DNA of 64,000 nucleotides from Mobula birostris (lineage: Eukaryota): the NCBI RefSeq assembly GCF_030028105.1, contig NC_092370.1:94446969-94510968 (forward strand). The letters run 5' to 3'. Position 1 is the first letter of the stretch. Each line of letters opens with the position of its first letter. Positions 13,716 through 64,000 of the stretch are shown piece after piece. A model generated the notes under the pieces. The model saw only the letters and a list, made by a program, of their open reading frames with translations, was not told where the DNA came from and made no database searches. Both the position numbers and the translations under genes were made by a program.

Positions 13716-13719
13716 ATTC

Positions 13720-35410: not shown

Positions 35411-35447
35411 ATATATAGACTTTGATAATAAATTTATTTTAAGGTTT

Positions 35448-38690: not shown

Positions 38691-38699
38691 CCTTATTTC

Positions 38700-40199: not shown

Positions 40200-42620
40200 G
40201 TTGCAAGCTGACCCCTGATGGCCTTGGTTGCTCAGAGAGTTGGTAATGGTAATCGTGAAAGAGATTCGGATCCACGATGTCTCTTTCTGGCACCCAGCAC
40301 CTTTCCTCCAGTCCACCAGGTATTGCTGAACACCTCCAGCACCTCACGAGTCCAAAAGTCTTTTCCCCATGAAGCCTGTTCCCCCTCAATAAACCTGGGT
40401 GGTGGGGAGGCGATAGTTGTGGGGCCAAGGGGCTGGTGCAGACAGGTTTTAATTCAGAGATTTAGAAGGTGGGGTTGATCTTTAGGGTCTTGGGGAGCTG
40501 CAGGGTGTAAGCCACTGGGTTTACTTTCCTCAGGATCTCAAAGAGACCAAAGAATTTGGGTGCCAACTTTCTAGATTCCACTCGGAGAGGCAAATATTAA
40601 GTGGACAGTTAGACCTGTTGCCCAGGCTGTAACGCGGATCGCAGACTTCTCCTTTGGCTTGCCTTGGTCTCCGCTCTCCGCTCTCCACATGGAGGCCAGC
40701 AAAATCTCTCTTGCCGTCATCCATTACTGCCTGCAGCATTGGACAAGTTCTTCTTCCTCAGGGACCCCAACTTCGGTTTCTTGCTCTAGAAAGAGGTGGA
40801 GGATAACAAAACTGGCACTTGAATAGAGACATCCCATGCACCGAGTGCTGTACAGTATTGTGGGTGATCTCTGCCCACATTAAATGGTCACACCACTGCT
40901 CAGGTCTTTCCAAGGCCAGGCATCTCAGGGTACATTCTAAATCTTGAATGGTCTGCTCCATCTGACCGTTGGACTGTGGATGAAACCCAGAGGAAAGGCT
41001 TGCTGTTATTCCTATCAGTTTACGGAGAGCCTTCCAGAAATGTGATGTGAATTGTTTACCATGATCTGAGACAATGTCCACTGGGGATCGTGGATCCTGA
41101 AGACCTGGTACAGGACAACCTCTCGTTCCAGTTCATCAAATTTATGGGACGGGGCATCTGGATTCTGGTTCTTCAACCGCAGTTGATAGGTCAGGATGAA
41201 ATTAAACTGGTTAAAAAACAAAGGCCACCTGGCCAGCCTGGAATTCAGCCTCTTGGCTTCCTGAATATAGGGCGGGTTTTAATGGTCAGTTCAAATGATA
41301 AAAGGGTTCTTGGCCCCTTTGGGCCAGTGAAGCCATTCCTCCAAAGCTAACTTAAGCACAAGAAACTCCTGATTCCAGATGTCATAGTTTCTCTTTGCCA
41401 GGGATAGCTGCCTGGAGAAGAATGCACACAGGTGCAGTTTGCTGTCTGAAGGTAACTGTTGAGACAAGACAGCACCTACTCTGATGTCTGAGGTGTCCAC
41501 CTCCCCAATGAAGGGAAGGTCCAGGTTAGGAGAAAGAAAGATGGGAGCTGTTGTAAATGGCTGTTTAAGCTCTGTGAAAGCAGCTTCTGCTTCAGTAGTA
41601 CAGACAAAAGGGCCCGTAGATTTCTTAGTTAGAGCCATCAGCATTCCTAATGAACTTCTGGTAGAAGTTAGCAAATCCCAAGAGTCGTTGGACCTGTTTG
41701 ATATTGGATGGTGGTGGCCAGTCTCTGACTGCCTGGGTCTTGGTAGGGTCCAACTCGAGATTACCATTAAGGATGATGAAACCCAAATATAAAACAGTCC
41801 TCACATGAAACTCAGACTTCTCCATCTTGACGTAAAGTCCATGGTCTAGTAGCCTCTTTAAAATGTCTCTGATGTGAGTGATGTGCACCTCCATGGACTT
41901 TGAGAAGATTAAGGTACCATCCAAGTAGACGAAGGCACACTTATGGAGAGTATCCCGGAGCACAGTGTTTATAAAGGCCTTGAAAACAGCTGGGGTGTTC
42001 ACTGGGCTGAAGGGCATAACCTGGTACTTGTAGTGTCTATTGAACGCCATCTTCCACTCATTGCCCTCCCTGATACAGACCAGATTGTAGGCACTCTGGA
42101 GATCTAATTTTGTGAATGCCCTCACTCCTTGGAGCATCTTGAAAGCCATATTCATAAGAGAAAGGGGGTAGCCATTCCTGGTCATTATGCAGTTTAATCC
42201 CCTGTAATTAATGCACTACAGCAGGCTCCCATCATTCTTTTGTACAAAGAAGAAGCTTGTGCCAGCTGGTGAGGTGGAGGGACTAATAAAGTCCATGGCA
42301 AGACCTTCCTTTATATACTCCTCCATGGCATTTCTCTCCAGGCCTGAGAGCACGTACAAACGACCCTGTAGAGGACAAGGACCAGGCAGCAGTTCCATGG
42401 TACAATTGTAGGGTCAGTGTAGTGGAAGAGTCGAGGCCTTTCCCTTGCTGAGAACCTCCTCTAAGTCCTTCTAAATATTGGGGATTTTGGCCGGTTTGGA
42501 TGGTGTTACCTCCTCCGGACTTCACTTTGAGGATGACTCCTGAGACCTTTTTGGTGACAGGGGTGATTCAACGGGCTTCAGGGTCCACAAGCAACAGCAG
42601 TGAGGTTCTTACAGAGGGTT
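40200..42620 (-). mobile_element. Degenerate chromodomain-bearing Gypsy (Tf2/sushi-like) pol without recognisable LTRs
   Basis: RT (FTKLDLQSAYNLV, YQVMPF, FVYLD), RNase H (EVDTSD..VGAVLSQ..CAFFSR..NYD), integrase (IVSDHGKQFTSHFW..SSGFHPQSNGQ), chromodomain-like YLVDW...WVPERDIVDP. Confidence 0.85.
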
Positions 42621-42639
42621 CTTGCATCCCCAGGATTAG

Positions 42640-43220
42640 GCTTCAAGGGCCAGCATTCCCTTCAGTGTCCTATCCTGAGTCCCTTCACTCCAGTTCCCAG
42701 CCCCTGGCCAAATTAGTTTAAACCCTTCCCAAGAGCCCTAAGTAAGCTGTCCATGAGAATATTGCTCCCAGGTGTCACTTTTGTACAGGTCATTCCCCCC
42801 TAGAAGAGATCCCAATCACCCAAGAACTTGAAGCCCTGCCCCCTGCACCAGTTTCACTGCCACACATTTATCTGCCAATTCATCCTGTTTCTACCCTTAC
42901 TGGTGTATGGAATAGGCAGCAATCCAGAAATTAGTACCCTTGAGGTCCTGCTTCTTGGCTTTTTGCCAAGCTCTCTGAATTCTCTTTTCAGGCCCTCTTT
43001 GCTTTTCCTTCCTATGTCATTGGTACCAATCTGTACCAAGACATCTGGCTGCTCTCCCTCCCCCTCCAAAATGCTGTGCTCATGATCAAGACGTCTCTGA
43101 CCCTGGCACCTGGGAGGCAACATACCATCTGGGTGTCCTGTTCATGTCCACAGAATCTCCTGTCTGTCTCTCTGACTGTCGAGTCCCCTATCACTACTGC
43201 TCCCCTCTTCTCCCTCTTTC
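42640..43220 (-). mobile_element. CR1 ORF1 (SGNH esterase) fragment
   Basis: IGDSTVR...CLPGARVRDV...VQIGTNDI...VLISGLLP. Confidence 0.8.
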
Positions 43221-44672
43221 CCAGGTAAATTTGAGGGCAGGGTGGAAATTGGAGGCAAAGTGGATGAAGTCAATGAGTTCAGCATGGGTGCAGGAAGCAG
43301 CACCAATGCAGTCATTGGTGAAAAAAAAAATAAGGAATTATAATAATGGAGTAGAATAATTGTGCCGTTTTCTGGGAATGTTGCTGTGATCCTTATTGTT
43401 TTTACTTTATATTATTGATTGATTTCAGGACAGCAGCTCTGAAATAATGACACAAATACATAGAATTTGCTGAGAAAATAACAGATTTAAGCTGTAAGGA
43501 TATGTCTGGAATGACCTAGCCATTTATGATTAGAAAGAAATACTTTTATGATGTTCATATCTCCATAAATTAACCTGCCTTGTGACTTTTGCACAAGAAA
43601 TTGCTGAATTTGCAGAAAGATGGGGTTGGTATTTAACAGAGCCAGTATCCCCTTGATTGCATGTTCCTTCAGTGCTAGCCATTATTTCCAGTTCAGAAAC
43701 AGAACAAATAAAACTATGGTATCTTGGTCCAGCAGTTAGTAAATCAAATTTAAAAGCTTTATATTATTCTTACTTTTCTTTTGTCTTCTTTGCTCTCTCC
43801 TTTATTACAACTTTTTTTTCTCTTGGTGAAACTTAACTTCTCCAATCAATGGTACAGGGATTGTGCATATAGACTCATTAGCAACCCAGCAGCGATGCAG
43901 TGACAGAGCACACACCACCAGGTTCAGGAACAATTACCCTACAACTACCAGGCTCCTGAATCAGCGTGAATAACTTCATCTGTGCACCATAACTATGAAC
44001 TGATTCTACACACAAACTCTTCAAGAACTCTTTACAGCTCATGTTCTCAGTAATATTTCTTATTTACACAAATAATTATCTTTAGCACATTGTTTGTTTG
44101 TCAGTGTACATTTATGAATTTTTTTTCATAAATTCTGTTGTATTTCTTTATTTTCCTGTAAATGCCTGCAAAAAAACGGATCTTAAGATAGTATTTGGTA
44201 ATATATACGTACTTTGATAAATTTTACTTTGACATTGAGGTTCAGATACAGTTAATATCCTACAACAATCAGGCTCTTGAACCGACATGGATAACTTCAG
44301 CAACCACTACTTTGAATGGATTCTAGAACCTTCTTGCTGACTCACTTTCAAGGATTCTGGAACTCTTGCTCTCAGCATTAGGTTGTTTTGCACCGTTTGA
44401 TTTCTTTTGCACGTTGGTTATTTGTCAGTTTTTAACTGTTTATGTATAATTTTCAGTAAATTCAACAGTATTCATTTTATTCCTGTAAATGCCAGCAAGA
44501 AAATGAATCTTAAGGTAGTAGTATATGGTAACATGTATGTACTTTGATAATAAGTTTACTTTGAACTCCTACATGACCATCATGATGACATGACAATAGG
44601 GCAGGATGCTGAAAAGTCTATAAAACTAGAGACTGAACACTTCCAAAGCGGTCAGTGGCTGAAGGCTGAAGC

Positions 44673-44789
44673 ATGAAGAGGTGTGTGCGCAAACGCAGGC
44701 GCAGGCGTAGAAATGGCAAGAAACCTTGCAAACGAAAATCAAGTACTATTGTCAGAGCACATCTTGTTCATCGGCGAAGAGCTGGGTGA
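44673..44789 (+). CDS. Truncated duplicate of the Z2-like protamine, 38 aa: MKRCVRKRRRRRRNGKKPCKRKSSTIVRAHLVHRRRAG (possible pseudogene)
   Basis: 44579-44783 reads identical to 46003-46207 (promoter, TATA, 5' UTR, 37 codons), then GGG TGA from unrelated flank; lacks the native 3' UTR. Confidence 0.7.
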   Translation: MKRCVRKRRRRRRNGKKPCKRKSSTIVRAHLVHRRRAG

Positions 44790-46042
44790 TTGAAATTCAG
44801 GTAAAATTAACTAGTTTGATGTCATTTTTTTGAATTGCTGTTCTTATTAGTGCTAATGTGCTTTAGCAAAGGAAATTTGCCATCTTTCTCTGGACAAGCC
44901 TTTATGTGAAATCTTTAATAACTCATATTTACAGTGCATGGCCCCATAAAAAAGCCCAGCTAGCCATTCAGTTCAAGGGCAATAAATGCAGGCCAGTCAT
45001 GGGATAATTGGCAAAAAAACAATTAACCCTATTTCTTTAACTGATACAATCATTCACCATTTGGTCCTAGATTTCCAACTGCACTCACTATGCTGCTAGC
45101 ATCACACACATTAGTAATGGATATTCACGCTGAAAGTTGTGGAGAATAATCTAACTCTTGGTTCTCCACTCAAGGAGACTTGGTGCCATTCCTGAACTTG
45201 GCTGAATAGAACAACTGGATAAATGTTGCCAGGCCATATTGAAGTAACACCTTAGTGACTTGCTTTGTACTTTGACACCTACTTCAATAATATTGACTGA
45301 GAATAGCAGAGTTGGAATTTTAATACCTAAAAAATACTCTCCATTGGATGGAAACAAATGTTTCATGCATTGACTTCAAATAGTTTAGCTTAAATGTAGA
45401 AAACACTAAAGCTGGCCAACAAGATTTTGCTGAACCATATATAGTGTTATACTATATGATAATCAAGAGAAATTCATGATCAAATTGTACAAGCAATTGT
45501 TTGGGGAGACCAGACAGGTACCAACAGAGCAAAGAGAAGCTTCCAAAGACTTTGATTTAAACTTAAGAGGGACAGAGGTTCTTTACTTCGAGTGAAAGGT
45601 ATGTTGTGGGAAAACTCAATTGTCTCTCGGTAAATTTAGAATTATCAAGTTAAATTAAATCCAATCAGCCCTGGCAGATAGGACACAAATTTGATTGTGT
45701 TCAACATTTCACTGGTGAGAATATATACATGGGAACCCTTTGTAAGTTTTAACCCATTGTTGTGTTCCAGGATAATTGTGATCTGAATAGAAGTAGCTTT
45801 GCACGAAATACCTTAAAATCAGTTATCTGCTAAACATATACAATCCCAAAACAACTTGGCCCAAGTGCCAAATATAGACAAATACCTTAAAAGGCAGTTT
45901 GGGAAAAAAATACCTTAATAGGCAATTATATGTTGAACATACACAGCCCAAAAAAAATTTGTGACAAAATGCCAAATATGGAAAGTAGCTGAAACCTGTA
46001 AAATCATGATGACATGACAATAGGGCAGGATGCTGAAAAGTC

Positions 46043-46049
46043 TATAAAA
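46043..46049 (+). promoter_or_regulatory. TATA box of the Z2-like gene
   Basis: TATAAAA 54 bp upstream of the ATG, with TGATGACATGACA (CRE half-site-like) about 35 bp further upstream. Confidence 0.7.
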
Positions 46050-46096
46050 CTAGAGACTGAACACTTCCAAAGCGGTCAGTGGCTGAAGGCTGAAGC

Positions 46097-46228
46097 ATGA
46101 AGAGGTGTGTGCGCAAACGCAGGCGCAGGCGTAGAAATGGCAAGAAACCTTGCAAACGAAAATCAAGTACTATTGTCAGAGCACATCTTGTTCATCGGCG
46201 AAGAGCTTCAAGACGTTGTCATCGGTAA
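46097..46228 (+). CDS. Scylliorhinine Z2-like protamine, 43 aa: MKRCVRKRRRRRRNGKKPCKRKSSTIVRAHLVHRRRASRRCHR
   Basis: Hand-translated, absent from the ORF track; MK.C.RKRRRRRR...CK..SSTIVRAHLVHRR.A.RRC matches catshark protamine Z2 as I recall it; TATA upstream, AATAAA at 46370. Confidence 0.9.
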   Translation: MKRCVRKRRRRRRNGKKPCKRKSSTIVRAHLVHRRRASRRCHR

Positions 46229-46369
46229 GAAGCTATGACAGATCAAAGAAAAGAACCATGTTTTGAGCTATTCGAGTACTAAAGAAGATGTGCACAAGGC
46301 AGACTGGATGAGGAAACTGCTTGAATTGAAACTTCGTTCTTCACACCATGTTCACTGATTCAAATTGAA

Positions 46370-46375
46370 AATAAA
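46370..46375 (+). terminator. Poly(A) signal of the Z2-like gene
   Basis: AATAAA 142 bp after the stop, followed by a motif shared with the S1-like gene. Confidence 0.75.
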
Positions 46376-47167
46376 AGCCTACAAGTACTGAGACTTGGAA
46401 AAAATATTTTGTTTGACTCAAGTTTTTTCAAATATAATTGCAGAATTATTTCATTACATGGTCAAGGGTGCTTGAATTGAAAGCGAAAGTGGTGCAAATG
46501 AACCTCCTATAGATGTCAGTCAAGAGAACATTGAAACACTCATTCTGTTGGGAGGGCATTCCAGGACTTTGTAGATACTGTTTCTATGCATCTGCTAGTC
46601 TATGACTAGATGGTAGAGATAATGTATGATCGGTAGGATTCACCATTCTGTTGGTTGAGACTGGTGTAAGTGCAGGGGGATTTGATGAGTGAAAGACAGG
46701 GAGAAGGTGTGAAAGACATCCCAAAGCAGGCCCATCATCAACCATTGTGCTGGTGTGGTCATTGCCATACTAAAGGAAATGTAAGATTTACTTTGCAGTC
46801 AAACCACAATGTAATAATGAACAAGAGAAAATCTGCAGAAGCTAGAAATCCAAGCAACACACACCAAATGCTGGAGGAACTCAACGGGCCAGGCAGCATG
46901 TATGGAAAAGAACACAGTCAATGTTTTGGGACGAGATCCATCACCACTCCTGATGAAGGGTTGACTGTACTCTTTTCCATAGATACAGCCTGGCCTGCTG
47001 AGTTGGACCACAAGGCAAAGGAGCAGAATTAGGCCATCTGGCCCGTTGAGTTTGCTCTGCCATTCAGTCAAGGCTGATCCTTTTCTTTATCTCCTCCTTA
47101 ACTACTATTCCCGGCCCTCTCCCCAAAACCTTTGATGCCATGTCAAATCAAGAACCCATCAATCTCT

Positions 47168-48210
47168 TGTCATGGCTCGGTCCGTGAAGTCCGCATTCTG
47201 GTTCACGGTCTGGTCCATCGACCCTTGCTCCAGGTTTTCCTGTCTACCCTGTTTCTGTTTCTGTTGAGCACTAATTGAGGCAGCTGATTCTTGTTGGGGC
47301 TGGCTGTATAAATACCTCCAGAAACCAGGGGCATGGCTGCTGGATTGTTCTTGTCCTTACTCCTTGTATCCCTTCCCCTCTCTTCTGTTTCCTTGCCTGA
47401 AGCCCTGCCTTGTCTTGCTGGTAACTCCTGCCTCGCCTCGCCTGTAGTCTTGTCTTGGAGCCACCCTGTACCTAGCTCCCTTCCTGTCCCTTGCCTCCGT
47501 CAGGTAGGCCAGGCCGTATTGCCGTTACCCTGCAGTGGGTTCTGTCCCTTTCTGTCCCTTGCCTCCGTTGGGTAAGCCAGGCTGTGTTGCTGTTACCTAC
47601 AGTTGGTTCTGTCCCTTCCTGTCCCTTGCCTCTGTCGGATAAGCCGGGCTGTTTTGCTGTTACCCTGCGGTTGGTTCTGTCCCTTCCTGTCCCTTGCCTC
47701 CGTCGGGTAAGCCAGGCCATATTGCCCTTACCCTGTGGTGGTTTCTGTCCCTTCCTGTCCCTTGCCTCTGTCGGGTGGAGATCCGCGCCCTGCCCAGGAG
47801 GAGCTTCAAGACCCCAAGCCTCTAGCTGAGCCTCGCCTCATGCCGAGCTTCAAGACCCCAAGCCTCAAGCCTCTAGTCTCAAGTCTCTGGTCTCCAGCCT
47901 CACCTCAAGTCTCAAGCCTTACCTCGAGTCTCAAGCCTGAAGACTCCAGCCTCGTCTTGCCTGCCAGCCAAGTCACGTCCTTGCCCGGTTCTGGGGTCCG
48001 AGCCAGAGGCAAGACCCAGATTCTGGGTCCTTATACAGTCTCTGGCTTGGAGTCCAAGCCCTGGTTCCTAACTCTCTTGTCCAGTCCTGTTCCGGGTTCC
48101 CGGTTTTCATGTCCATGTCCTTACCCTCACCCTGTATCCTAGTCCTGTCCCTAGTACTTCAGTGTCTGTGTCTTGCACTTGGGTCTGTTCCCAGCCACCA
48201 CCTTATGACA
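47168..48210. mobile_element. Solo LTR, about 1.04 kb, with an internal minisatellite
   Basis: Termini TGTCAT...ATGACA; 5-bp TSD TCTCT at 47163-47167 and 48211-48215; about five copies of a ~65-bp unit at about 47478-47775. Confidence 0.8.
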
Positions 48211-49016
48211 TCTCTGCCTTAAATACACCCAACCATCTGGCCTCCACAGCTGCATGTGGCAACAAGTTCCACAAATTCACCACACTTTGGCTAAAGAAAT
48301 TTCTCTGCATCTCTGTTTTGAAAGGGTGCCCCTCTATCCTGAGGCTGTGCCCTCTTGTCCTAGGCTCTACCACCATGGGAAACATCCTTTCCACATCTAC
48401 CCTGTCTAGACCTTTCATCATTCGAAAGGTTTCAATGAGATCCTCATCCTTCTGGATTCCAGCGAGTACAGACCCGGAGCCATCAAACGTTCCTCGTATG
48501 ATAACCCTTTCATTACTGGAATCATCCTTGTGAACGTCCTCTGGACCGTCTCTAATGCCAGCATATCTCTTCTAAGATGAGGGGCCCAAAACTGTTCACA
48601 ATACTCAAGGTGAGGCCTCACCAGTCCCTTATAAAGCCTCAGCATCACATCCTTGCTCTTGAATTCTAGACCTGTTGAAATGAATGCTAACATGGCATTT
48701 ACGTTCCTCACCACTGACTCAACCTGCAAGTTAACCTTCAGGGTGTTCTGCACAAGGACTCCCAAGTCTCCCTGCATTTTAGATTCCTGGATTTTCTCCC
48801 CATTTAGAAAATAGTCCACACATTTATTTCTACTACTAAAGTGCATGACCATGCATTTTCCAACATTGTATTTTGTTTCCCATTTTCTTGCTCATGCTCC
48901 TAATCTGTCCAAGTCCTTCCACATCCTACCTGTTTCCTCAACACCACCTGCCCCTCCACTAATCTTCGTATCATCTGCAAACTTGGCAAAAAAGCCTTCT
49001 ATTCGATCATCTAAAT

Positions 49017-49266
49017 CAGTGGTCCTCAACCTCCGGGCTGCGGACCGATACCGGGCCGTGGAGAATGCAGCGGTGCAGCGGTAGCTGGAATGTATCCAGC
49101 ACATCTTTAAGAAAAAAGCTGAAATAAACAAGCTAATTGATTAGGTGCCGCCCAGCAAGTAAATGTCGGCCCAGATCAGAGGCGCCTCCTAATCAATTAG
49201 CTTATTTATAAGCTGCATTCTTCGCGACCCAGTATCGGTCCACGGCCCAGAGGTTGGGGACCACTG
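49017..49266. mobile_element. hAT MITE, 250 bp
   Basis: TIRs cagtggtcctcaacct ... aggttggggaccactg; 8-bp TSD ATCTAAAT. Confidence 0.9.
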
Positions 49267-52200
49267 ATCTAAATCATTTATATACAGCATAAAAATAAGT
49301 GGTCCCAACACCAGCCCCCGCGGGACAAAACTAGTCACTGGTAGCGAACCAGAAAAGGATCCTTTTATTCCTACTCACCGCCTCCTACCGATCAGCCAAT
49401 GCTCTAACCATGTTAGTAACTTTCCTGTAATACTATGGGGTCTTAACTTAGTAAGCAGCCTCATGTGTGGCACCTTGACTTAGGCCTTCTGAAAATCCAA
49501 ATATATAATATCCACTGTATCCCCTTTATCTATGCTACTTGTAATCTCCTGAAAGAATTCCACCAGGTTCATTAGGCAGGATTTTCCCTGAAGGAAACCA
49601 TGCTGACTTTGTCCTATCTTGTCCTGTGTAACCAAGTTCTCCATCACCTCATCCTTAACAATTGACTCTAGCTTCTTCCCAACTACTGACGTCAGGCTAA
49701 CTGGTCTATTAATTTCCTTTCTGCTGCCTTCCTCCTTTCTTAAAGAGTGGAGTGATATTTGCAATTTTCCAGTCCTCTGGCACTATGCCAGAGTCCAATA
49801 ATTTTTGAAAAATCATTTCTAATGCCACCACAATCTCTAACCCTACCTCCTTCAGAACCCTAGGGTGCAGTTCATCTGGTCCGGGTGACTTATCTTCTTT
49901 TAGGTCTTTCAGCTTTTTCAGCACCTTCTCTCTTGTAATAGTAACAGCACCTACCTCTCTTCCTTCACACACCACAAAATCAGGCATACTGCTCGTGACT
50001 TCCACAGTGAAGGCTGATACACAATACACATTTAGTTCATCAGCATCTCCTTGTCCCCCGTTATTATTTATCCTCCCTCATTTTCTAGCAGTCCTTTATC
50101 TACTCTCATTTCTCTTTTATTTTTAACATACTTGAAAAAACTTTTACTATCTACTTTGATATTATTTGCTAGTTTGCTTTCATATTTCAACTTTCCCCTT
50201 CTAATAATTTTTTTAGTTGATCTCTGTAGTTTTTTGAAAACTTCCCAATCCTCTACCTTCCCACTAATTTTTGCTTTGCTGTATGCCCTTCCTCTTGCTT
50301 TCACAATAGCATTGACTTCTCTTGTAAGCCACGTTGTACTATTTTACCATTTGAGTATTTCTTCATTTTTGGAATATACATGTCCTGCACCTTCCTCATT
50401 TTTCTCAGAAACGCACGCCATTGCTGTTCTGCTGACATCCCTGCCAGCGGCTCCATCCAATTTACTTCGGCAAACTCCTCTCTCATACCATTGTAATTTC
50501 CCTTACTCCACTGAAATACTGCTATATCAGACTTTACTTTCTCCCTATCAAATTTCAAGTTGAACACAATCATATTGTGATCACTGGTTCCTAAGGGTTC
50601 TTTTACCATAAGTTCCCTAATCGCCTCCGGTTCGTAACATAACATACAATCCAGTATAGCTGATCCTCTAGTATGTTCAATGATAAACTGGTCTAAAAAG
50701 CTATCTCTTAGGCATTCAACAAACTCACTTTCTTGAGATCCATTACCAACCTGATTTTCCTAACTGAACTGCATGTTAAAACCTCCCATGACTATCATAG
50801 CATTCCTCTTTTGATCCGCCTTATTTCCCGTTGTAACCTTTGATCCACCTCCCAGCCACTGTTGGGAGGTCTGTATATAACTGCCATCAATGTCTTTTTA
50901 CCCATGCAGTTTCTTAACTCACCCCACAAGGATTCAAACATCTTCCGATCCTATGTCACACCATCCCCTCTGCCTACCTTCCTATCCCTCCGATATAGCA
51001 TGTAACCTTGGACATTCAGCTCCCAACTACAACCATCCTTCCGCCACGATTCGGTGATAGAAACATAGAAAACCTACAGCACAATACAGGCCCTTTGGCC
51101 CACAATGCTGTGCTGATTTTGGAAATTATCTAGGGTTACCTCTATTTTTCTAAGCTCCATGTACCTATCCAGGAGTCTCTTAAAAGACCCCATCGTATTC
51201 GCCTTCACCACCGTCGACGGCAGCCTATTCCACGCACTCACCACTCTCTGCATAAAAAACTTACCCCTGACATCTCCTCTGTACTTACTTCCAAGCACCT
51301 TAAAACTGTGCCCTCTCGTGTTAGCCAATTCAGCTTGGGAAAAAGCCTCTGATTATCTATACGATCAATGCCTCTCATCATTTTATACAAGATATAGGAG
51401 CAAAATTAGGCCATTTGGCCTATCTAATCTACTCTGCCATTTCATCATGGCTGACCCAATTTTCCTCTCAGCCCCAATCTTCTGCCTTCTTCCAGTACCT
51501 CTTCATGCCCTGACCGATCAAGAATCTATCAATCTTTGTATTAAATACACATAAAGACTAGGCCTCCACAGGTGTCTGTTGTAAAGAATTCCACAGATTC
51601 ATCACTCCCTGGCTAAAGAAATTCCTTATCATCTCTGTTCTAAAAGGATGCCCCTCTCTTTTGAGGCTGTCCCCTCTGGTCTTAGACTCTCCCATCACAG
51701 GAAACATCCTCTTTACATCCACTCTATCAAGAACTTTCACCATCTCAGGGTCTATCCTGTGCTGCTCCCTTAGGATCTTGTGTACTTCAATGAACCTCCT
51801 TATTCTAAACTCCAAGGACAGATTCAACTATTCTTAACCACTCACGTATGATATTTCTTGTGTTCCAGGAATTAGTCAGGAGAATCTTTTTTTGAGACTA
51901 CCTCCAACACTAATATCTTCTTTCATAAATAAGAGATGAAAATTGTGTGCAGTACTTCAGGTGTCTCTGTAACAGGACTTCCCTATTTTAAACCCTTAAC
52001 CACTTTGCAAGAAGAGCCAATATGCCAGATGCCTTCCTAACTACTTGCTGTACGCGTCTGTTAACTTCCTGTGTAGTGTGCATATACACCAAGATCCCTA
52101 TAAACTTCATTCATCTGCAAATTCTCTTCTCTTAGATACTGATCTGTCTTTTGTTTTCTCTTTGCAAAATGCATGGCTTTACATTTTTCCTCTTTAAATT

Positions 52201-53548
52201 CCACTTGCTAATCTTTTCCTACTCAATCTACTGTATATCTTATTCCAGAATCCAAAATGACATCACAACATACCCTCCCTCCTATCTTACTTTAAGCACT
52301 GCTTCCTGCTTAATACTGTATAAACAGTAAATCATTGAGGGGCAAGAACTGATTACAGTATTAGGGCACTTCCTAGTTACAACTTTACAGCCTAAATGTT
52401 ACAGAACCTGCACCAGTTCACTCACGGTCTCTTAGAGAACAAAATCTACTATTCATTTCTGATCGAGCCTATGTGACAAAGATTGCTGTCTTTTGATTAG
52501 AGATTACGGCCACAGCATCATACCTGGCAATCTGTAATATTGCAACAAGATCATCCACCTTATTTCTTATACTACACACATTTAGATACACAGCTTGAGG
52601 ACCATATTTGCTATCCTTTCTGATTCTGCATCCCTGTTGGCTGCAATTAAGTCCCATCACCTGCCTGCCTTTCCTGACAATCTGACTGCACGCTACCTTT
52701 ACCTTTTTACCATCCATCCTATCCTGAGTACTTTCACTCCGGTTCCCAACTCCTACCGAGTTCTTCCAATATTTTGTGTGTGTTACAATGTAGTAATGAC
52801 CTGTTTTGAAATTGGTGAGGGCAGTACTGAGGGAGTGTTGTATTGCTGGAATATTCTTTCACATTAAGCATTAAATTGATACTCTACCAACCCCGCTAAG
52901 TGACCTTGAATAATTTTAGGCATTTCTCTGAAGAAAACTGAGCAGGTGTGTTATCCCCTAGGCTCTGGCCAAAATCGTCCTCATTCAGCATTACTAAAAC
53001 ATATTCCCAATTCTGTACTACATTCCTGTTTGAGTGAGTTTGTTGTGCATAAAATATAGAGTAAGAAACAATAACTACACTTTAAGAATGTGCCTTGAGT
53101 GTAAAGCGCCTCAGGATGATATGAAAGTACTTTATATGTGCAAGCCTTTCTGTTTTATCTTATTTTGTTTTCAAGCTTTAAGCAATGCAGCTAGTTCTTC
53201 AAAGTAATGGGGGAGATGTTCTGTTCTCAGGCCGGCAGGCATACTGTGAATTATCTACTGATCTTTCTCAGAGGAAGTCCTAATTTCCAGAGTTGGCCTG
53301 GGCTTGCAGGGTACCTTCCATCCTATACTAGTGACTCTGAGTGGTATCCAGAAGAGCCAGACAAACTGCAATGGGTTTCACAGCTCCCGGGTAGGAAATA
53401 GCTGTAAGTACAATCAGTCTGTTCAAATAAATGGAAGAAGTCAGCTACCGGGAGCTGTAAGTAGGGATTTTTTAAATATTTAATTGTTAGGGTTCGTTTT
53501 TAATATATGTGTGTTCTTTACAATCTTAAAGTAGTAAAGTGAAAAGTA

Positions 53549-53645
53549 AAAGTGGCAGGCAGGCAAATCCAGGGCAAAAATCTGTAGGTCCCTTGAAAAG
53601 TGGCCCTTTCTGATTTTTGCCTTGGATTTGCCTGCCTGCCACTTT
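53549..53645. repeat. 34-bp inverted repeat with a 29-bp spacer at the 5' end of a CR1 copy
   Basis: aaagtggcaggcaggcaaatccagggcaaaaatc (53549-53582) against gatttttgccttggatttgcctgcctgccacttt (53612-53645), one mismatch. Confidence 0.85.
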
Positions 53646-53689
53646 AACATAATTGTATAAGGGCTAAGAGTGTTGTAAAAGCAAGCCTG

Positions 53690-56567
53690 AAGGCTTTGTG
53701 TGGCAATGCAAGGAGCATTCGTAACAAGGTGGATGAATTGAATGTGCAGATAGTTATTAATGAATATGATACAGTTGGGATCATAGAGACATGGCTCCAG
53801 GGTGACCAAGGATGGGAGCTCAACATTCAAGGATATCCAATATTCAGGAGGGATAGACATGAAAGAAAAGGAGGTGGGGTAGCATTGCTGGTTAGAGAGG
53901 AGATTAACACATTAGAAAGGAAGGACGTTAGCCTGGAGGATGTGGGATCAATATGGGTAGAGCTGCATAACACTAAGGGGCAGAAAACGCTGGTGGGAGT
54001 TGTGTACAGGCCACCTAACTGTAGTAGTGAGGTTGGGGATGGCATTAAACAAGAAATTAGAAATGTGTGCAATAAAGGAACAGCAGTTATAATGGGTATC
54101 TTCAATCTACATATAGATTGGGTGAACCAAATTAGTAAGGGTGCTGAGGAAGAGGATTTCTTGGAATGTATGCGGGATGGTTTCCTGAACCAACATGTCA
54201 AGGAACCAACTAGACAGCAGGCCATTCTAGACTGAGTATTGAGCAATGAGGAAGGGTTAGTTAGCAATCTTGTCATGAGAGGCCCCTTGGTAAGAGTGAC
54301 CATAATATGGTGGAATTCTTCATTAAGATGGAGAGTGACATAGTTAATTCAGAAACAAAGGTTCTGAACTTATAGAAGGGTAACTTTGAAGGTATGAGAT
54401 ATGAATTAGCTAAGATAGACTGGCAAATGATACTTCAAGGGTTGACGGTGGATATGCAATAGCAAGGATTTAAAGATCCCATGGATGAACCACAACAATT
54501 GTTCATCCCAGTTTGGCAAAAGAATAAATCAGGGAAGGTAGTGCACCCGTGGCTGACAAGGGAAATTAGGGATAGTATCAATTTCAAAGAAGAAACATAC
54601 AAATTAGCCAGAAAAAGTGGCACACCTGAGGACTGGGAGAAATTCAGAGTCCAGCAGAAGAGGACAAAGGGCTTAATTAGGAAAGGGAAAAAAGATTATG
54701 AGAGAGAGCTGGCAGGGAATATAAAAACTGACTGTAAAAGCTTTTATAGATATGTGAAAAGAAAAAGATTGCTTTGACAAATGTAGGTCCCTTACAGTCA
54801 GAAACAGGTGAATTGATCATGGGGAACAAGGACATGGCAGACCAATTGAATAACTACTTTGGTTCTGCCTTCACTAAGGAGGACATAAATAATCTTCCGG
54901 AAATAGTAGGGGACCGAGGGGCTAGTGAGATGGAGGAACTGAGGGAAATACATGTTAGTAGGGAAGTGGTGTTAGGTAAATTGAAAGGGTTAAAGGCAGA
55001 TAAATCCCCAGGGCCAGATGGTCTGCATCCCAGAGTGCTTAAGGAAGTGGCCCAAGAAATAGTGGATGCATTAGTGATAATTTTTCAAAACTCTTTAGAT
55101 TCTGGACTAGTTCCTGAGGATTGGAGGGTGGCTTATGTAATCCCGCTTTTTAAAAAAGGAGGGAGAGAGTAATTGGGGAATTATAGACTGATTAGCCTAA
55201 CATCAGTGGTGGAGAAAATGCTAGAGTCAGTTATCAAAGATGTGATAACAGCACGTTTGGAAAGCGGTGAAATCATCGGACAAAGTCAGCATGGATTTGT
55301 GAAGGGAAAATCATGTCTGACGAATCCCATAGAATTTTTTGAGGATGTAACTAGTAGAGTGGATAGGGGAGAACCAGTGGATGTGGTATATTTGGATTTT
55401 CAAAAGGCTTTTGACAAGGTCCCACACAGGAGATTAGTGTGCAAACTTAAAGCACACGGTATTGGGGGTATGGTATTGTTGTGGATAGAGAATTGGTTGG
55501 CAGACAGGAAGCAAAGAGTGGGAATAAATGGGACCTTTTCAGAATGGCAGGCAGTGACTAGTGGGGTACCGCAAGGCTCAGTGCTGGGACCTCAATTGTT
55601 TACAATATATATTAATGACTTAGGCGAGGGAATTAAATGCAGCATCTCCAAGTTTGCGGATGACACGAAGCTGGGTGGCAGTGTTAGCTGTGAGGAGGAT
55701 GCTAAGAGGATGCAGGGTGACTTGGATAGGTTAAGTGAGTCGGAAAATTCATGGCAGATGCAACTTAATGTGGATAAATGTCAGGTTATCCACTTTGGTG
55801 TGAAGAACAGGAAAACAGATTATTACCTGAATGGTGGCCGATTAGGAAAAGGGGAGGTGCAACGAGACCTGGGTGCCATTGTACACCAGTCATTGAAAGT
55901 GGGCATGCTGATACAGCAGGCGGTGAAAAAGGCGAATGGTATGCTGGCATTCATAGCGAGAGGATTCGAGTACAGGAGCAGGGAGGTTCTACTGCAGTTG
56001 TACAAGGCCGTGGTGAGACCACACCTGGAGTATTGTGTGCAGTTTTGGTCCCCTAATCTGAGGAAAGACATTCTTGCCATAGAGGGAGTACAAAGAAGGT
56101 TCACCAGATTGATTCCTGGGATGGCAGGACTTTCATATGAAGAAAGACTGGATCGACTAGGCTCATACTCGCTGGAATTTAGAAGATTGAGGGGGGATCT
56201 TATTGAAACATATAAAATTCTAAAGGGATTGGACAGGCTAGATGCAGGAAGATTTTTCCCGATGGTGGGGAAATCCAGAACGAGGGGTCACAGTTTGAGG
56301 ATAAAGGGGAAGCCTTTTAGGACCGAGATGAGGAAAAATTTCTTCACACAGAGAGTGGTGAATCTGTGGAATTCTCTGCCACAGGAAACAGTTGAGGCCT
56401 GTTGATTGGCTATATTTAAGAGGGAGTTAGATATGGCCCTTGTGGCTAAAAGGATCAGGGTGTATGGAGAGAAGGCAGGTACAGGGTGCTGAGTTGGATG
56501 ATCAGCCATGATCATACTGAATGGCGGTGCAGGCTGAATTGCCTACTCCTGCACCTATTTTCTATGT
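53690..56567 (+). mobile_element. CR1 LINE with near-complete ORF2 (APE endonuclease and RT), few stops/frameshifts
   Basis: ORFs 53696-54235 (NARSIRNK..ETW..GVVYRPP..G.FN), 54481-55172 and 55173-56405 (YLDFQKAFDKV, PQGSVLGP, FADD, RTRGH); CR1 3' tail cctactcctgcacctattttctatgt. Confidence 0.95.
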
Positions 56568-57749
56568 AAACCTATGTTCTGTAATAGCTAACACTGGCCA
56601 TCTACCCTTTCTGTGCCCCTCATAATTTTTATAAACTTCTCTTAGGTCTCCCATGAACCTCCAATGCACCAGAGAAAATAATCCAAGTTTGTTCAACCTC
56701 TCCTCATAGCTCATACATTCTAATCCAGGCAGCATCCTGGTAAAGCTCTTGTGCACTCCCTCCAAAATCTCTATACCCTTCCTGTAATGGGTGTCCAGAA
56801 ATACACCAAGAGTGGCTTAACGAAAGTTTGATACAACTGTAATATGGCTTCCTGATTCCCATGCTCACTGTGCATACCACCCTTACCAATCTATTAACTT
56901 GTGCAGCCGTTGTCAGAGAGCTATGGAAATGGAACCCAAGATCCTTCTGTACATCAATGTTGTTAAGGATCCTGCCAGGAGCTCTATACCTCCCCTTAAA
57001 CCTGACCTCAGAAAGTGTAACACCTTACACTTTCCCAGATTAATCTTCATCTCTCTGCGACATCTGTAATTGATCTATCTCCTAATGTATCCTTTGATGA
57101 TCTTCTTCACTTTCTATAATGCCACCAATATTTATGTTGTCTGAAAACTTACTGACCAACCCATCTACATTTTTCTCCACGTCACTATATAGATAATCCT
57201 TCATGTTCAACAAAATTGAGTGCTTTGAGTAGGAAGGGCACAGAATATAACCTGGTCAAGGGACTTAGTCCCTGCCCTAATGCACTGGCTGCCAGTCTAG
57301 AATCCTGATGAAGGACCTTGGCCCAAACGTCAACTGTTTATTCATTTCCATAGAGGCTATCCAACCTGCTGAGTTCCTCAGTATCTTGCGTGTGTTGTTC
57401 TGGATTTCCTGCATCTGCCGAATCTTTTGTGTTTATGTCAGTCAGTCTGTATGAGATAGTAAGCAAAACCATATGAGTGAGAAATATACTCAACTCAGCT
57501 CGGCGCTTCACAAAAAAACAGCCTCTCCTCCGTGGACTCTTGATATACTTCTATCTGGCTTGGTAAAGCAGCCAGCATAATCAAAGATCCCACCCACCCC
57601 GGACATTTTCTCTTCTTCCCTCTCCCATGGGGCCGACAATAGATAAAACAAGGGGAGTATCTCTGATATTTGAGACCAAATGTAGCATTTAAAATTAGAC
57701 TGTGTTTCTATGTCTACCTATTAAATGTTGCTAGCAGCAAGGTTGCGAT

Positions 57750-60160
57750 AAATAACTGAGCAATAAATACTGAAAACATGAGATGAAGACTCATTGAATC
57801 CATAGATTGTGGAAACGCTTCAATGATGGGGCAAGCGAAATTGAGTGAAGTTATCCCCTCTGGTTCAAAAGCCTGATGGTTGAGGGGTAGTAACTGTTCC
57901 TGAACCTGGTGCTGTGAGTCCTGAGGCTCTGGTACCTTCCTTCTGACGGCAGCAGCAAGAAAGGAGCATGGCCTGAATGATGGGCTTCCCTGATGATGGA
58001 TGCTGCTTTCCTGAGACAATGCTTTATACGGCATGTGCTCAATGGTGGGGAGGGTTTTACCCGTGTAATCCAACGGGCCATATCTACTATTTTTTGTAGG
58101 ATTTTCCATTCAAGGGAAATGGTGTTTCGAAACTAGGCTGTGATACAGCCAGTCATATACTCTCCATTATAGAAGTTTGTCAATGTTTTAGATGTCATGC
58201 AAAATCTTCACAAAATTCTAAAGAAATAAAGGCACTGCTGTGCTTTCTTCGTAATTGCACTTATGTGCCAGGCCCAGAACTGTTCATCCAAAATAGCTGC
58301 ACTGAGAAATTTAAAGTTGCTGACCCTCTCTACCTCTGATCCTCCGATGAGGACTGGTTTCTTCCTCCTGAAGTCAATAATCAGCTCCTTGGTCTTTCTA
58401 ACATTAAGTAAGGGATTTTTGTTATGGCACCACTCCAGATTTTCAATCTCTCTCCTATACTGAGTCATCATCACCATTGATTTGGCCTAAGAGAGTGGTG
58501 TTGTCAGCAAACTTTAATATGGCATTGGAGTGTAAATGTGTAGAGCAAAGGGCTAAGACACAGCTTTGTGATGCACCTATGCTGATGGAGATTGTGGAGA
58601 TGTTCTTGCCAGTCCAAAATGACTGGGGTCTGCAAGTGAGGAAATCATAAACAAGAGAAAATCTGCAGATGCTAGAGAACTCAACAGGCTAGGCAGCATC
58701 TAGGAAAAGAGTACAGCTGACGTTTTGGGCCAAAACCTTTTGGAAACATCGACTGTACTCTTTTCCTAGATGCTGCCTGGCTGCTGAGTTCCTCCAGAAT
58801 TTTGTGTGTGTTGTTAAATCGAGGATACAATTGTACAAGGAAGTATTGAGGCCAAGGTCTTGAAGTGTATTGATTAGTTTTGAGGGGATGATGGTATTGA
58901 ATGCTGAACTGTAGTCAATAAAGAGTAATCCTGATGTTCCAGGATTGAGTGAAGAGTGAAGAGTAAATTAGATTATGAGGACACTCAGTCTTTGTCTGTT
59001 GTCATTTAGAAATGCATGCATTAAAAAATGATACAACGTTCCTCCAGAATGATATCACAAGGAAACACAGGATAAACCAAGACTAAAACTGACAAACCCA
59101 CATAATTATAACATATAGTTACAACAGTGCAAAGCAATACCATAATTTGATAAAGAGCAGACCATGGGCATGGTAAAAAAAAAGTCTCAAAGTCCCGATA
59201 GACTCATCATCTCACGCAGACGGTAGAAGGGAGGAACTCTCCTGCCATGAACCTTCAAGCACTGCCAACTTGCCGATGCAGCACCATTGGAAGCACCAAA
59301 CCGCAGCGGACTCTGAGTCTGTCCGAAAACTTTGAGCCTCTGACCAGCCCCTCCGACACAGCCTTTCCGAGCTCCATCCTCTGCTGAGTGCTTTGAGCCC
59401 GCCCCGGCCGTCGAGCAGCAAGCAAAGCGGAGGACTCAGGGCCTTCCCCTCCAGGGATTCTGGACCACACAGTAGCAGATGAGATGGCATTTGTTGTGGA
59501 TCTGTTGCTCTGGTAGACAAGTTGCTTTTCAGTCAGGAGTTGAACATGTTTCGTCACCAGCCTCTCAAAATGCTACTTCACAGTGGATGTAAGTACTACT
59601 GGACGACTTTCATTGAGGCAGGCACCAGTTCATTGAGAACTGGTGCCCACGTTCTTCTTAGGCACCAGTGTAACTGAAGCCTGCTTGAAGAAAGTAGTCA
59701 CCTCTGACTGCCGCAGTAAGACATTATAGATCTCAATGAACACTCCAGCCAGTTGATCAGTACTTGGTCAGGTACCTCGTCTGGGTCAGACTCATTCTGT
59801 GGGCTCACCCATCTGAAGGCTGCTGCGCAAACGCCTGAAAGACTGAAATCACAGGATCATCTGGAAGTGTGAGTGTTTGTGATAGCTCCTCCATGTTTTG
59901 ACGCTCAAAGTGAGTATAGAAGGCATTGAGCTCATCTGGAAGCGAAGCCCTGTAGTTGTCTGTATTACTTGATTAAACTTTATAAGCAGTAATAGCATTC
60001 ATCCCCTGCCACAACTGTTGAACATGTTTTGTTGATTCGAGTTTAGCCCAGAATTGCCACTTTGCCCATGAGATGGCTTTTCAGAGATCGTACCTGGACC
60101 TCTTGTAACTTTCCTGGTCACCAGACTTGAATGCCTCTGATCTGACCCACCTGTAGACTA
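57750..60160 (-). mobile_element. Rex1-type LINE remnant interrupted by smaller repeats
   Basis: ORFs 57851-58081 and 58208-58477 (LNVRKTKELIIDFRR..VERVSNFKFL); further degenerate RT/EN sequence to about 60150. Confidence 0.7.
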
Positions 60161-60880
60161 CATGCAGATTTTTGCAAAGTTTTTGCCTGTGTTTGGTTTC
60201 TTCAGTGTAGAGGAAACCACTTTGTGGATCACATTTTGAACACTAGGTTGGGAGATTTGTTGTTTCACCTACAAAGAAATATGGACTCTCTAGAAGGGGA
60301 TAAGGAAGAGATGTTGTTATTTACAGGGACATAGTTGATGGAGAGCAGGACTGATGGAGAATGGACGTGAAAGCACAGAGGAACATCTGGAGAAATTTCT
60401 GAAACGCCCGTTCGCTGCTGTTGTTACTGTGTGGTCGGGAATATTTCAGAGGGTAGGCTTCAAAATCCCCGGCCTTGCCTGCTTTTGGCGACGGAGATGG
60501 AGGTCGAATCGTTCGGACAGAGATGGCGCTCAGTACTCGGTGTCGGAGAGCTGATCAGAGCTTGAAGTTTTTGGATGACTCAGGGTCAGATTGTGGTCGG
60601 CACGGCAGGGAGAGTTTTTCTTCCTTCTCCCGTCTGCGTGAGATGTGGGACATTTGAGAAACTTTGAACTTTACTGTGCTCACGGACTTCTTCATCAAGT
60701 TATGGTATTGTTACACCGTTTGTAACTGTATGTTAGAATTATGTGGTTTTGTCAGTTTTTTCAGTCTTGGTTTGTCCTGCGTTTTGTGATATCACACCGG
60801 AGGAAATAATGTATCATTTCTTAATGCATGCATTACTAAATGACAATAAAGGAGGACTACGTGTATTCATAATCATAATA
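58968..60880. repeat. Two oppositely oriented copies (about 58968-59471 and 60330-60880) of one non-autonomous retro-repeat
   Basis: gtcatttag.aatgcatgcattaa.aaatgataca...gatatcacaa at 59000-59060 is the reverse complement of 60785-60845. Confidence 0.65.
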
Positions 60881-62004
60881 ACTCAGCATTCCATGTTATA
60901 GAATCTCCAGGCCTGACAATGGGGGCACATAAAAGAGAATGTGGCACTGTCATTTACAACTGAAATGAGGCCGTGTGGGTAGAACTTAGCAGTAAAAAGG
61001 GGATGATTACGTGCCTTCTAGTAGTCGGGCAAAGTGACAGCAGATATGCGGACAAGTCACAGAGGTGTGCCAACAATAGAAATATAGCAGCAGGGAATTT
61101 CAACTTCCCCAGTATTAACAAGGATTACTGTAGTTTGACAGCTGCAAGCAGGAGAGATTTCTGAGCTGGTGTGTAGATAGTAGACTTAAGATAGTAGATA
61201 ATAGACCTAATTTTAGGGAATGTAGACATGAAAGTGGATGACTAGCTAGTTGGATAGTGAGCATACATTTAGAGGTAGTTATGGAAAGGGATATGCATGG
61301 CCCAGTTCCTGGATTGAGGGAATGCTGATTTTGAAATAAAGTAAAATCTGGTAGAAGTATAATAAAAAAATTGCTAGAGGAAATCAGTGTGTCAGGCAGC
61401 ATCCGAGGAGGGAAACAGACAGTTGATATTTCAGGTGGAAATCTGGCACCTGGATTGAAAGTGTAAGGGGACATAGCCAGTGAGGTGAGGGGAAGGGGTG
61501 AAACAAGAGCTGGCAGGTGACAGGTGGATCCAGGTGAAACAGTGTAATAAGCATTCTGAGGACAGAAGGGCAAAACAAGTCCTTGTCCGATGTATGGGTA
61601 CCCTTTACATTTCCCTGCTTATCATCCCTCTTCACCTGAATCCCGCTGTCAGTCGCCAGCTCTTTTTCCCTACTCCTTCCCATCGCCACTTTATAATGAC
61701 TATCCCCCTTTGCTCTTTCAGTCCAGGTGAAGGGTCTCGATTGTTCTTTTCCCTCCACCTGACCCAGTGAGTTCATCTAGTAGTTGGCTTTTTACCCCAG
61801 ATTCTACCATCTACAGTCTCTTTTTATCTCCTGGTAAAAGTAAGCTGGAAGAGACAGGCCTACATCAGACAAGTGGGAGTCATTTAACTGTGAAATAATG
61901 GACTCACAAAAGGCTGACAGGTGTCAAGGAATATTGAGTTTTTCCAGAGCAAAATTAATACATTGCCAGTTTCTTCAAAAACAGTGTTAACTTGTTTTAA
62001 ACAA

Positions 62005-62300
62005 TTTTTTCCCGGGGCTGAAACGGCTAGCATGAGAGGGCACAGCTTTAAGGTGCTTGGAGGTAGGTACAGAGGAGATATCAGGGGAAAGTTTTTTACG
62101 CAGAGATTGGTGAGTGTGTGGAATGGGCTGCCAGCGACGGTGGTGGAGACGAATCTGATAGGGTCTTTTAAGAGACTCCTGGACAGGTATATGGAGCTTT
62201 GGGTAACCCTAGTTAATGTATCAGGTAAGGACATGTTTGGCACAGCTTTGTGGGCCAAAAGGCCTGTATTGTGCTGTAGGTTTTCTATGTTTTTATGTTT
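62005..62300 (+). mobile_element. CR1 3' fragment
   Basis: RGHSFKVLGGRYRGDIRGKFFTQRLVSVWNGLP; same family as 51058-51330(-). Confidence 0.75.
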
Positions 62301-62696
62301 TATTTTATTTATCTTATGGTACTAAGATATTTACATCTTGATGAATACAAAATATGGTTCTTCAGACCGTACACGGTACGATTACATCACTCACCAAAGG
62401 CATTACAAGTTTTGTCCATATATGGCATGACGTTGGTATAAAGACACTGAAATCCATTGTGTATTGATCAAACTCACCAATAAAATGATATGATCAATGT
62501 ATCAGTGTATTCACCTTATAAGGTGCCATTTACATCTCTATGAATACAAAATATGGCTTCAGACCAAACATGGTATGATTATGTCACTCAACAATGGTGC
62601 TTGCAGGCATTAAAAGCTGCCTACGGGAGCTAACATTCAATTGAAAATCTCTAATCAGTGAGATAGTGTACAAGACAATTTGCTAATCAAGAGGAC

Positions 62697-62963
62697 ATGA
62701 CCAAGTCACGATATCGTACCAGACGCAGCCGACCACGTAACCGATATGGTAGGCGGCTGCGTAAATCAAAGGGTCGAAGGAGAGGGCGGCGAGTCAGCCG
62801 CAGACCTCGCCATGCCTCCTACAGGAGAAAGGTACAGAAGAGTGTGCATCAAAAACGCCGCAGCAGACTCCGAGATGAAATTGAAAATTTGAAAGTAAAG
62901 AACAACAGACGTCTTAATGAATCGCTTAAGCAGCATAGAATGCCCATGAGGGTGCCTGTCTGA
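62697..62963 (+). CDS. Spermatid-specific intermediate (transition-like) basic protein S1, 88 aa
   Basis: MTKSRYRTRRSRPRNRYGRRLRKSKGRRRGRRVSRRPRH...RDEIENLKVKNNRRLNESLKQHRMPMRVPV; the N-terminal TKSRYR and C-terminal DEI.NLKVKNNRRLNESLKQHR.PMRVPV match catshark S1 as I recall it; intronless, AATAAA at 62997. Confidence 0.9.
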   Translation: MTKSRYRTRRSRPRNRYGRRLRKSKGRRRGRRVSRRPRHASYRRKVQKSVHQKRRSRLRDEIENLKVKNNRRLNESLKQHRMPMRVPV

Positions 62964-62996
62964 ATGCCATGATGAAAAGAGTATCACTTGATATTG

Positions 62997-63002
62997 AATA
63001 AA
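62997..63002 (+). terminator. Poly(A) signal of the S1-like gene
   Basis: AATAAA 34 bp after TGA. Confidence 0.75.
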
Positions 63003-63559
63003 AAACAAGTACTTGAGACTTGGAAAACAAAATCTTCCTGTTTCGTTTTACATTTTTCTCAACCTATTAGAAATAGTGAATCAAAAAATTAATCTCAAAG
63101 ACATAATTAAATCTTGTATTAAAAAGGTTCCATCTGCAAAAGAAAGCTACCCTGCAGACCTCTGGCAGTATTCAGTAGTGGTGTCTTATGGCTATGAATG
63201 ATCCTTGGTTCTGATAAATGTACTTTGCAAGAACATCAGGCTGTAGTTGTGCCCAAGTCTGAAATTTAAGGCATTTTGCAACTATGACCTTTGGAGGGTA
63301 TCAAAGTCAAAAGCAGGGTGCAATGGGTGATTGTGACATTTTGACTTATAAATAAGATTTTGGATGAGTGAGTGCCAAGAGGTCACAAGTTAACTGTGAA
63401 TGACAGATAGGGCAGGAGCAGACACAGGCAGCAAATTGGACTGGAGATGGAGGATGAAGGGAGAAGGTCTTTGATGGGTTGTCATGATTTCTTGCGATCA
63501 ATTATTTACCATTCTTTATGCCATAACAGATTGAGTGCATCATGGCATCATCAGAACCA

Positions 63560-63917
63560 GAGCGAAAAACAGAAATAATATAAATAATATAACATAAAAA
63601 GAAAAAAAGTGAAGTAGTGTTCTTGGGTTCAATGACCACTTAGGAATCGTATGGCAGAGGGGAAGAAGCTGTTCCTGAATCACAGTGTGTGCGTTCAGGC
63701 TTCTTTACCTCCTTCCTGATGGTAGCAATGAGGAGAGGGCATGTCCCGGGTGATCAGGATCCTTAATAATGGACACTGCCTTTCTGAGGCACCGATCCTT
63801 GAAAATGTCTTGGATATTTTGGAGGCTAAACCCATGATGGAGCTGACTAATTTTACAACTTTCTGTAGCTTCTTTTGATCCTGTGCAATCGACCCCTCCC
63901 CCAATACCAGACACCAT
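63560..63917 (-). mobile_element. Rex1-type LINE 3' fragment
   Basis: CLRKAVSIIKDPDHPGHALSSLLPSGRR. Confidence 0.7.
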
Positions 63918-64000
63918 GTAGGTAACCGTGGTATTTATTACCTGTCCTTATGTTTGTCCTTTTCACTTGGGTGGTTTTATAAAAGATGGACTCCTATTTA

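Follow-up and report, generated by a model that had tools for sequence, protein, structure and literature searches.

The mammalian PRM1-PRM2-TNP2 cluster occupies 13-15 kb on 16p13.3, and a serum response element sits next to position -190 of human PRM1 (PMC4607923). TNP2 is adjoined by SOCS1 (in part of PMC4869110), and transition proteins are treated in sections of PMC9258737. For cartilaginous fishes, dogfish spermiogenic protein transitions are cited within PMC11607694, the dogfish keratinous protamines Z1 and Z2 are named in the title of a reference given in PMC10099843, and protamine goes unmentioned in text portions of PMC3466250, which concerns elephant shark testis cDNAs. Our search of the literature, which was thin on subscription journals, including the 1980s dogfish work, found no paper on protamine or S1 genes in TRPN1. 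Dogfish spermatid proteins are reportedly the subject of protein and cDNA papers from that decade, and S1 is regarded as a transition protein from its UniProt name and the dogfish work.

The window analyzed here, a stretch of 64,000 nucleotides from the ray Mobula birostris, contains three intronless genes on the plus strand, in the order Z1-like, Z2-like and S1 (Table 1). We think that S1 and the two Arg/Cys-rich protamine-like genes probably form a co-regulated spermatid cluster that is antisense to TRPN1 and driven through CArG boxes, with SRF as the probable factor. The S1 protein is already known from catshark and would be ordinary alone; what matters is the apparently nested cluster and its CArG signature.

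Table 1. Positions of the genes, regulatory elements and exons in the window.
Feature	Position	Strand	Details
S1 spermatid basic (transition-type) protein gene	62697..62963	+	ATG at 62697, stop at 62963; 88 aa, intronless, no Cys
S1 residues 60-80, predicted helix holding all acidic residues	62874..62936	+	composition, AlphaFold2
S1 AATAAA and 3' element	62997..63027	+	common to Z2-like gene
Z2-like AATAAA and 3' element	46370..46402	+	common to S1
Perfect CArG box, S1 promoter	62416..62425	.	-281 from S1 ATG
Perfect CArG box, S1 promoter	62514..62523	.	-183 from S1 ATG; same 10-mer precedes Z1-like gene
Duplicated 72-bp S1 promoter segment	62329..62597	+	62329-62400 versus 62528-62597, 83% identical; each with a one-mismatch CArG
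Three perfect CArG boxes, Z2-like promoter	45885..45981	.	-212, -184 and -125 from Z2-like ATG
Perfect CArG box (-210) and one-mismatch box (-146), Z1-like promoter	33117..33190	.	distances from Z1-like ATG
Z1-like protamine-like gene	33327..33491	+	54 aa, 20 Arg, 7 Lys, 4 Cys; AATAAA at 33621
Z2-like protamine-like gene	46097..46228	+	43 aa, 16 Arg, 6 Lys, 3 Cys; TATAAA at 46043
Truncated copy of Z2-like gene	44579..44789	+	205 bp identical to 46003-46207; TATA and 37 codons; no CArG boxes, different end
TRPN1 exon, aa 118-155	29356..29469	-	polypyrimidine tract and AG acceptor
Six further TRPN1 exons, aa 156-391	27104-27000, 21120-21022, 11668-11567, 9370-9269, 2119-2021, 274-74	-	all AG/GT, phase 0
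Inferred TRPN1 intron, codons 117/118	29470..64000	-	at least 34.5 kb, holds cluster; far end beyond window

The S1 gene is almost certainly the ray orthologue of the gene for catshark spermatid protein S1. Its predicted product was identical to catshark (Scyliorhinus canicula) SSS1_SCYCA (UniProt P13275) at 70 of 87 positions without gaps (E 3.6e-31), so the ORF is not a chance one, and a sequence-only reading that had named this an S1-like spermatid protein locus was correct. An unnamed member of the P13275 cluster was identical at 73/87 positions, and the Callorhinchus milii proteins A0A4W3KFX7 and A0A4W3HC88 at 57/87 and 51/87, respectively, indicating that the S1 family is older than the split between chimaeras and elasmobranchs. 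P13275 and these two uncharacterized Callorhinchus proteins were the only matches, from 11 candidates, when S1 was used to query 5.8 billion proteins; a full HMMER scan over 1.84 billion representatives gave one match, a Callorhinchus protein, and none of 281 pattern matches in a metagenome scan was confirmed. Callorhinchus has two S1 paralogues in UniRef, both unnamed. Comparison with both S1 and S2 of catshark had been proposed; S1 was matched, and none of the three matches from the 5.8 billion proteins was called S2. Within the window, tblastn with five homologues found no second S1-like gene (next best E 0.062).

S1 has two parts that differ in charge. Residues 1-59 contain 24 Arg and 6 Lys but lack acidic residues, all four of which fall within residues 60-88. 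The bipartite 88-residue protein described in the sequence-only reading was therefore recovered, with both the quoted N-terminal motif and the C-terminal segment present; the N-terminus is indeed rich in Arg, but "Tyr-rich" does not describe a protein with three Tyr in 88 residues. The proposed likeness to protamine P1 found no support in Pfam: S1 and its four homologues did not match Protamine_P1 (PF00260) at E up to 10 in a search whose HMMER filters drop weak matches. Profile matches of S1 to the mammalian transition proteins TP1 and TP2 were likewise absent, and the Pfam matches of S1 and the protamine-like ORFs were all sub-threshold (zf-SAP30 at E 0.016, Nnf1, L19e).

The two genes upstream of S1 are probably orthologues of dogfish Z1 and Z2. 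A scan for basic ORFs beginning with ATG found eight in the window, four of them with at least 40% Arg+Lys (33327-33491, 44673-44789 [38 aa], 46097-46228 and S1), all on the plus strand between 33 and 63 kb; at a length of at least 35 aa, there were four such ORFs in the real window and none in each of 200 shuffled windows. The Z1-like and Z2-like proteins are about 50% Arg+Lys with 3-4 Cys, and in their shortness, Arg richness and several Cys they resemble the keratinous protamines of dogfish; we take the 33327 ORF to be the putative counterpart of Z1 and the 46097 ORF that of Z2. Polyadenylation signals (AATAAA) lie 129 and 141 nt downstream of the Z1-like and Z2-like ORFs, and the TATAAA of the Z2-like gene is at -54 from its ATG. 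Searches for these names gave little: a database search with a mixed alignment of the two proteins, a poor query, yielded 0/33 candidates at E up to 10, and Pfam Protamine_P1 did not match either ORF at E up to 10, again with HMMER filters that drop weak matches. Placement in a protein atlas put the Z1-like protein at 0.80 to a protamine P1 cluster, which is a lead only, and another atlas look-up was blank. The coding sequences of S1, Z1-like and Z2-like did not align with one another, and there was no protein-level paralogy.

The Z2-like gene has a partial second copy. Positions 44579-44783 duplicate 46003-46207 exactly, including the TATA box and the first 37 codons, and the sequence suggests either a very recent duplication or an assembly artefact. 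Elsewhere on the plus strand, a 29-aa ORF with 31% basic residues (32208-32297) follows, at 65 nt, one of the two perfect CArG boxes that lie away from the three intact genes (32143-32152); a poly(A) signal comes 211 nt after the ORF. This ORF is possibly a decayed or small further member of the cluster.

These sperm protein genes seem to have been missed by annotation. The S1 matches fell into three clusters, none from NCBI shark or ray annotation. Exact look-up of the Z1-like and Z2-like sequences in the protein collection returned no entry, and the sperm proteins of the window were absent from this collection, whereas TRPN1 of Mobula birostris was present.

Contigs from sequencing runs give a weak hint of an unspliced S1 transcript spanning about 62635-63040. 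We compared four of 21 runs over the S1 region; none is recorded as RNA and none carries a tissue label. Run X1 is RNA by our guess, run X14 is of unstated kind, and the two come from two studies. X14 had one unbroken 316-nt contig across 62653-62981, and X1 had no cover at 62308-62613 or 63073-63400, such that contigs of both runs end near both ends of the gene and those of run X11 continue through. The summed contig depth of X1 over the gene was 0.5-2.5 million, although contig depth cannot rank expression, and run X2 contributed one 166-nt piece at a depth of 3.6.

The C-terminus of S1 may plausibly serve in protein interaction. It had been called almost invariant and amphipathic in the sequence-only reading, which proposed a conserved interaction domain. 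Near-invariance held between ray and catshark, where residues 60-88 (29 aa) carry 2 changes and residues 2-59 carry 15 (Fisher P 0.045), but did not extend to the chimaera, in which each Callorhinchus homologue was identical to ray S1 at 19/33 C-terminal positions. Residues 2-20 were equally conserved relative to catshark (2/19 changed), and in comparisons with the two Callorhinchus homologues residues 2-55 (38/54 and 32/54 identical) were conserved at least as well as the C-terminus. Eleven columns from L65 to H80 were invariant in 5/5 homologues, including chimaera. AlphaFold2, given five sequences, predicted a single helix at residues 40-79, of which only the part at 61-80 reached good confidence (pLDDT about 80), with a pTM of 0.25. 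Its amphipathicity was modest: the hydrophobic moment of residues 60-80 was matched or exceeded by 867/10000 shuffles, and that of the best of six S1 windows tried by 500/10000. Homodimer prediction with residues 45-88 scored 0.02.

The constraint on S1 may be partly at the level of nucleotides. Run X14 differed from the window at 14 positions over the S1 region, two in the leader, 12 in codons 5-58 and none in codons 59-88 (P 0.007), and seven of the 12 coding differences were synonymous (four codons change the residue). There were no synonymous changes in codons 59-88 versus seven in codons 1-58 (P 0.054). This pattern, the modest amphipathicity and the drop in identity in chimaera would fit a C-terminus that is kept because of a 3'-proximal RNA element, or as a plain DNA-binding helix, and not for protein interaction. 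We consider this rather unlikely, given the eleven columns that are invariant as far as chimaera, the confident part of the modeled helix, and the fact that the nucleotide pattern comes from a single comparison (X14). The reading of the helix as a handle for other proteins is itself somewhat less likely than not.

S1 and the Z2-like gene have a 3' element in common. The S1 AATAAA is at 62997-63002, 33 nt past the stop codon, and about 25 nt directly after AATAAA are common to the two genes. The alignment score of 52 was reached by none of 1000 shuffles and none of 897 controls from the window, and the element is present in exactly two copies in the window; the Z1-like gene is without it. Rfam had no matches in 29000-64000.

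The promoters of the three genes are enriched in CArG boxes. We defined a perfect box as CC(A/T)6GG and a promoter as the 300 nt before an intact ATG. The number of perfect boxes in the window was near that expected by chance (eight versus 6.7), but six of the eight were within the promoters of the three genes, where 0.03 were expected (binomial P 2e-10). None of 20000 promoter shuffles reached six, and 15 control motifs with variant flanks had 44 sites in the window and none in the three promoters. The motif was picked after inspection of the promoters, by way of an 11-mer common to those of S1 and the Z1-like gene; this post-hoc choice is offset by the textbook consensus and the large margin. 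An unbiased search for exact 7- and 8-mers common to all three promoters returned a single 7-mer, and whole-promoter alignments among the genes lacked significance (matched by 40 to 188 of 1000 shuffles). No consensus CRE at one mismatch occurred within 400 nt of any of the three start codons, where there were half-sites only. Among 40 listed of the 60 differences in run X11, none was inside the two perfect S1 boxes. The copies of the 72-bp segment in the S1 promoter are spaced by about 198 bp, and one X11 contig crosses both.

CArG boxes are binding sites of SRF. From their distribution, the boxes of the cluster are likely functional, and SRF is the factor that we favor, by a little over even chances, as the one acting there. 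Alternatively, the three genes could be tandem paralogues in which the CArG boxes and the 3' element are inherited leftovers, or the boxes could be sites for another factor. The 3' element that is common to S1 and the Z2-like gene does point to common ancestry or sequence exchange, the S1 near-CArG boxes sit in the local 72-bp duplication, and the SRF sites here are predictions. However, perfect boxes with four different core sequences are kept between -125 and -281 in all three genes, and the persistence of these boxes in genes whose coding and other promoter sequences fail to align suggests selection. We therefore think inherited leftovers improbable and continue to regard the boxes as likely regulatory sites of a probably co-regulated cluster.

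The cluster is likely nested in an intron of TRPN1, as judged from exon positions in one genome, from which both the gene order and the position relative to TRPN1 are taken. Minus-strand ORFs with ankyrin-like translations had matches to NOMPC and to TRPN1 of chondrichthyans, and the best PDB match of the exon that begins at 29469 was NOMPC (5vkq). The seven TRPN1 exons (aa 118-391), all AG/GT and phase 0, were collinear with Mobula birostris XP_072115641.1 (P0012) and identical at 274/274 residues, compared with 270/274 for M. hypostoma and 261/274 for Hemitrygon, which marks the window as DNA of a Mobula ray. In XP_072115641.1, 117 aa precede the 29469 exon. Codons 1-117 were absent from the window: the best matches were 5-7 of 12 per piece, versus 12/12 for four control pieces, and tblastn with residues 1-117 gave a best E of 0.046. 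The Z1-like gene, the truncated copy, the Z2-like gene and S1 are all antisense to TRPN1 within the 34.5 kb upstream of the codon-118 exon, and the absence of codons 1-117 indicates that the cluster is probably in one intron.

Alternatively, TRPN1 could be shorter and begin at the 29469 exon, with the cluster genes upstream of it as divergent neighbors and not nested genes. Two of 19 TRPN1 records start at or within this exon region, Narcine isoform X3 (P0007), which begins four residues before it, and Hypanus X10 (P0017), which begins inside it, and a short form would also fit the lack of exons for codons 1-117 in the window. In the other 17 records the exon is preceded by at least 80 aa, as it is in the perfectly matching Mobula birostris protein, and the exon has a canonical acceptor. 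A short TRPN1 is thus quite improbable, and we retain nesting within the intron between codons 117 and 118.

Repeats are found throughout this region. A broken Gypsy-like LTR element at 14000-19500, recognized by gag-, RT- and integrase-like frames upon reading translations, lies in a TRPN1 intron between flanking repeats (13151-13716 and 19509-20062) that are 87% identical. At 53600-56400 there is a fragment of a CR1/L2-type LINE with a 410-aa open frame that reads as reverse transcriptase-like, and many older LINE pieces are scattered across the whole window. Tandem repeats include a 68-bp unit in 4.4 copies (47477-47776) and a 69-bp two-copy repeat (30804-30942, 98%).

We propose the following sequence of events. 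A MADS-box factor, most likely SRF, would bind the CArG boxes and turn on all three genes after meiosis, and the 3' element of S1 and the Z2-like gene might control how the 3' end is formed or at which stage translation occurs. Residues 1-59 of S1, rich in Arg and free of Cys, would make reversible electrostatic contacts with DNA during the departure of histones, perhaps tuned by phosphorylation of Ser (S4 and S34 are invariant in 5/5 homologues). The acidic helix at residues 60-80 would stay off the DNA and could act as a handle by which S1 is loaded or removed, after which the Cys-bearing protamines would replace S1 and then cross-link. That S1 is instead a remnant of a linker histone (H1 or PL-type), with this helix left over from the winged-helix recognition helix, is very unlikely: the idea comes from a likeness of a few residues only, whereas the C-terminal 32 aa matched only ribosomal L29 in PDB (three matches at E up to 10, all E 3.9 or worse), a five-sequence S1 profile had no PDB match, neither Pfam Linker_histone nor Foldseek (S1 model versus PDB) gave any match, and the model is a single helix with no winged-helix domain.

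The ray gene extends what is known of S1 from catshark. The two proteins are alike in having a basic N-terminus, an acidic and hydrophobic C-terminus and an ungapped alignment; ray S1 lacks the single Cys of catshark S1, and the Callorhinchus homologues, a pair of paralogues, have small insertions and more Cys. Catshark P13275 is a database record without a contig, whereas ray S1 is known as a gene with a promoter, a 3' end and neighbors. The intron that separates codons 117 and 118 of TRPN1 would offer a constant location from which these genes could be gathered in every chondrichthyan genome, and such a collection would test single versus repeated origin of the vertebrate protamine clusters.

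By analogy, the ray locus may work like the mammalian PRM1-PRM2-TNP2 cluster at a different genomic address. Both link protamine-like genes and a transition-type gene in one stretch, the mammalian cluster in 13-15 kb beside SOCS1 and the ray cluster in a span of about 30 kb antisense to TRPN1. The genes of the mammalian locus carry an intron and those of the ray are intronless, and the ray proteins have no Pfam match to Protamine_P1, P2, TP1 or TP2. The enrichment of CArG boxes makes SRF a candidate regulator and is echoed in human PRM1 by the serum response element near -190. It is doubtful, but conceivable, that chondrichthyans have an SRF-driven cluster of spermatid transition and protamine genes, antisense in the TRPN1 intron, whose CArG box or serum response element near -190 was inherited, in common with PRM1, from the jawed-vertebrate ancestor. 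If so, protamine genes would have kept a homologous mode of regulation for over 400 million years in two clusters whose proteins and addresses are not recognizably homologous.
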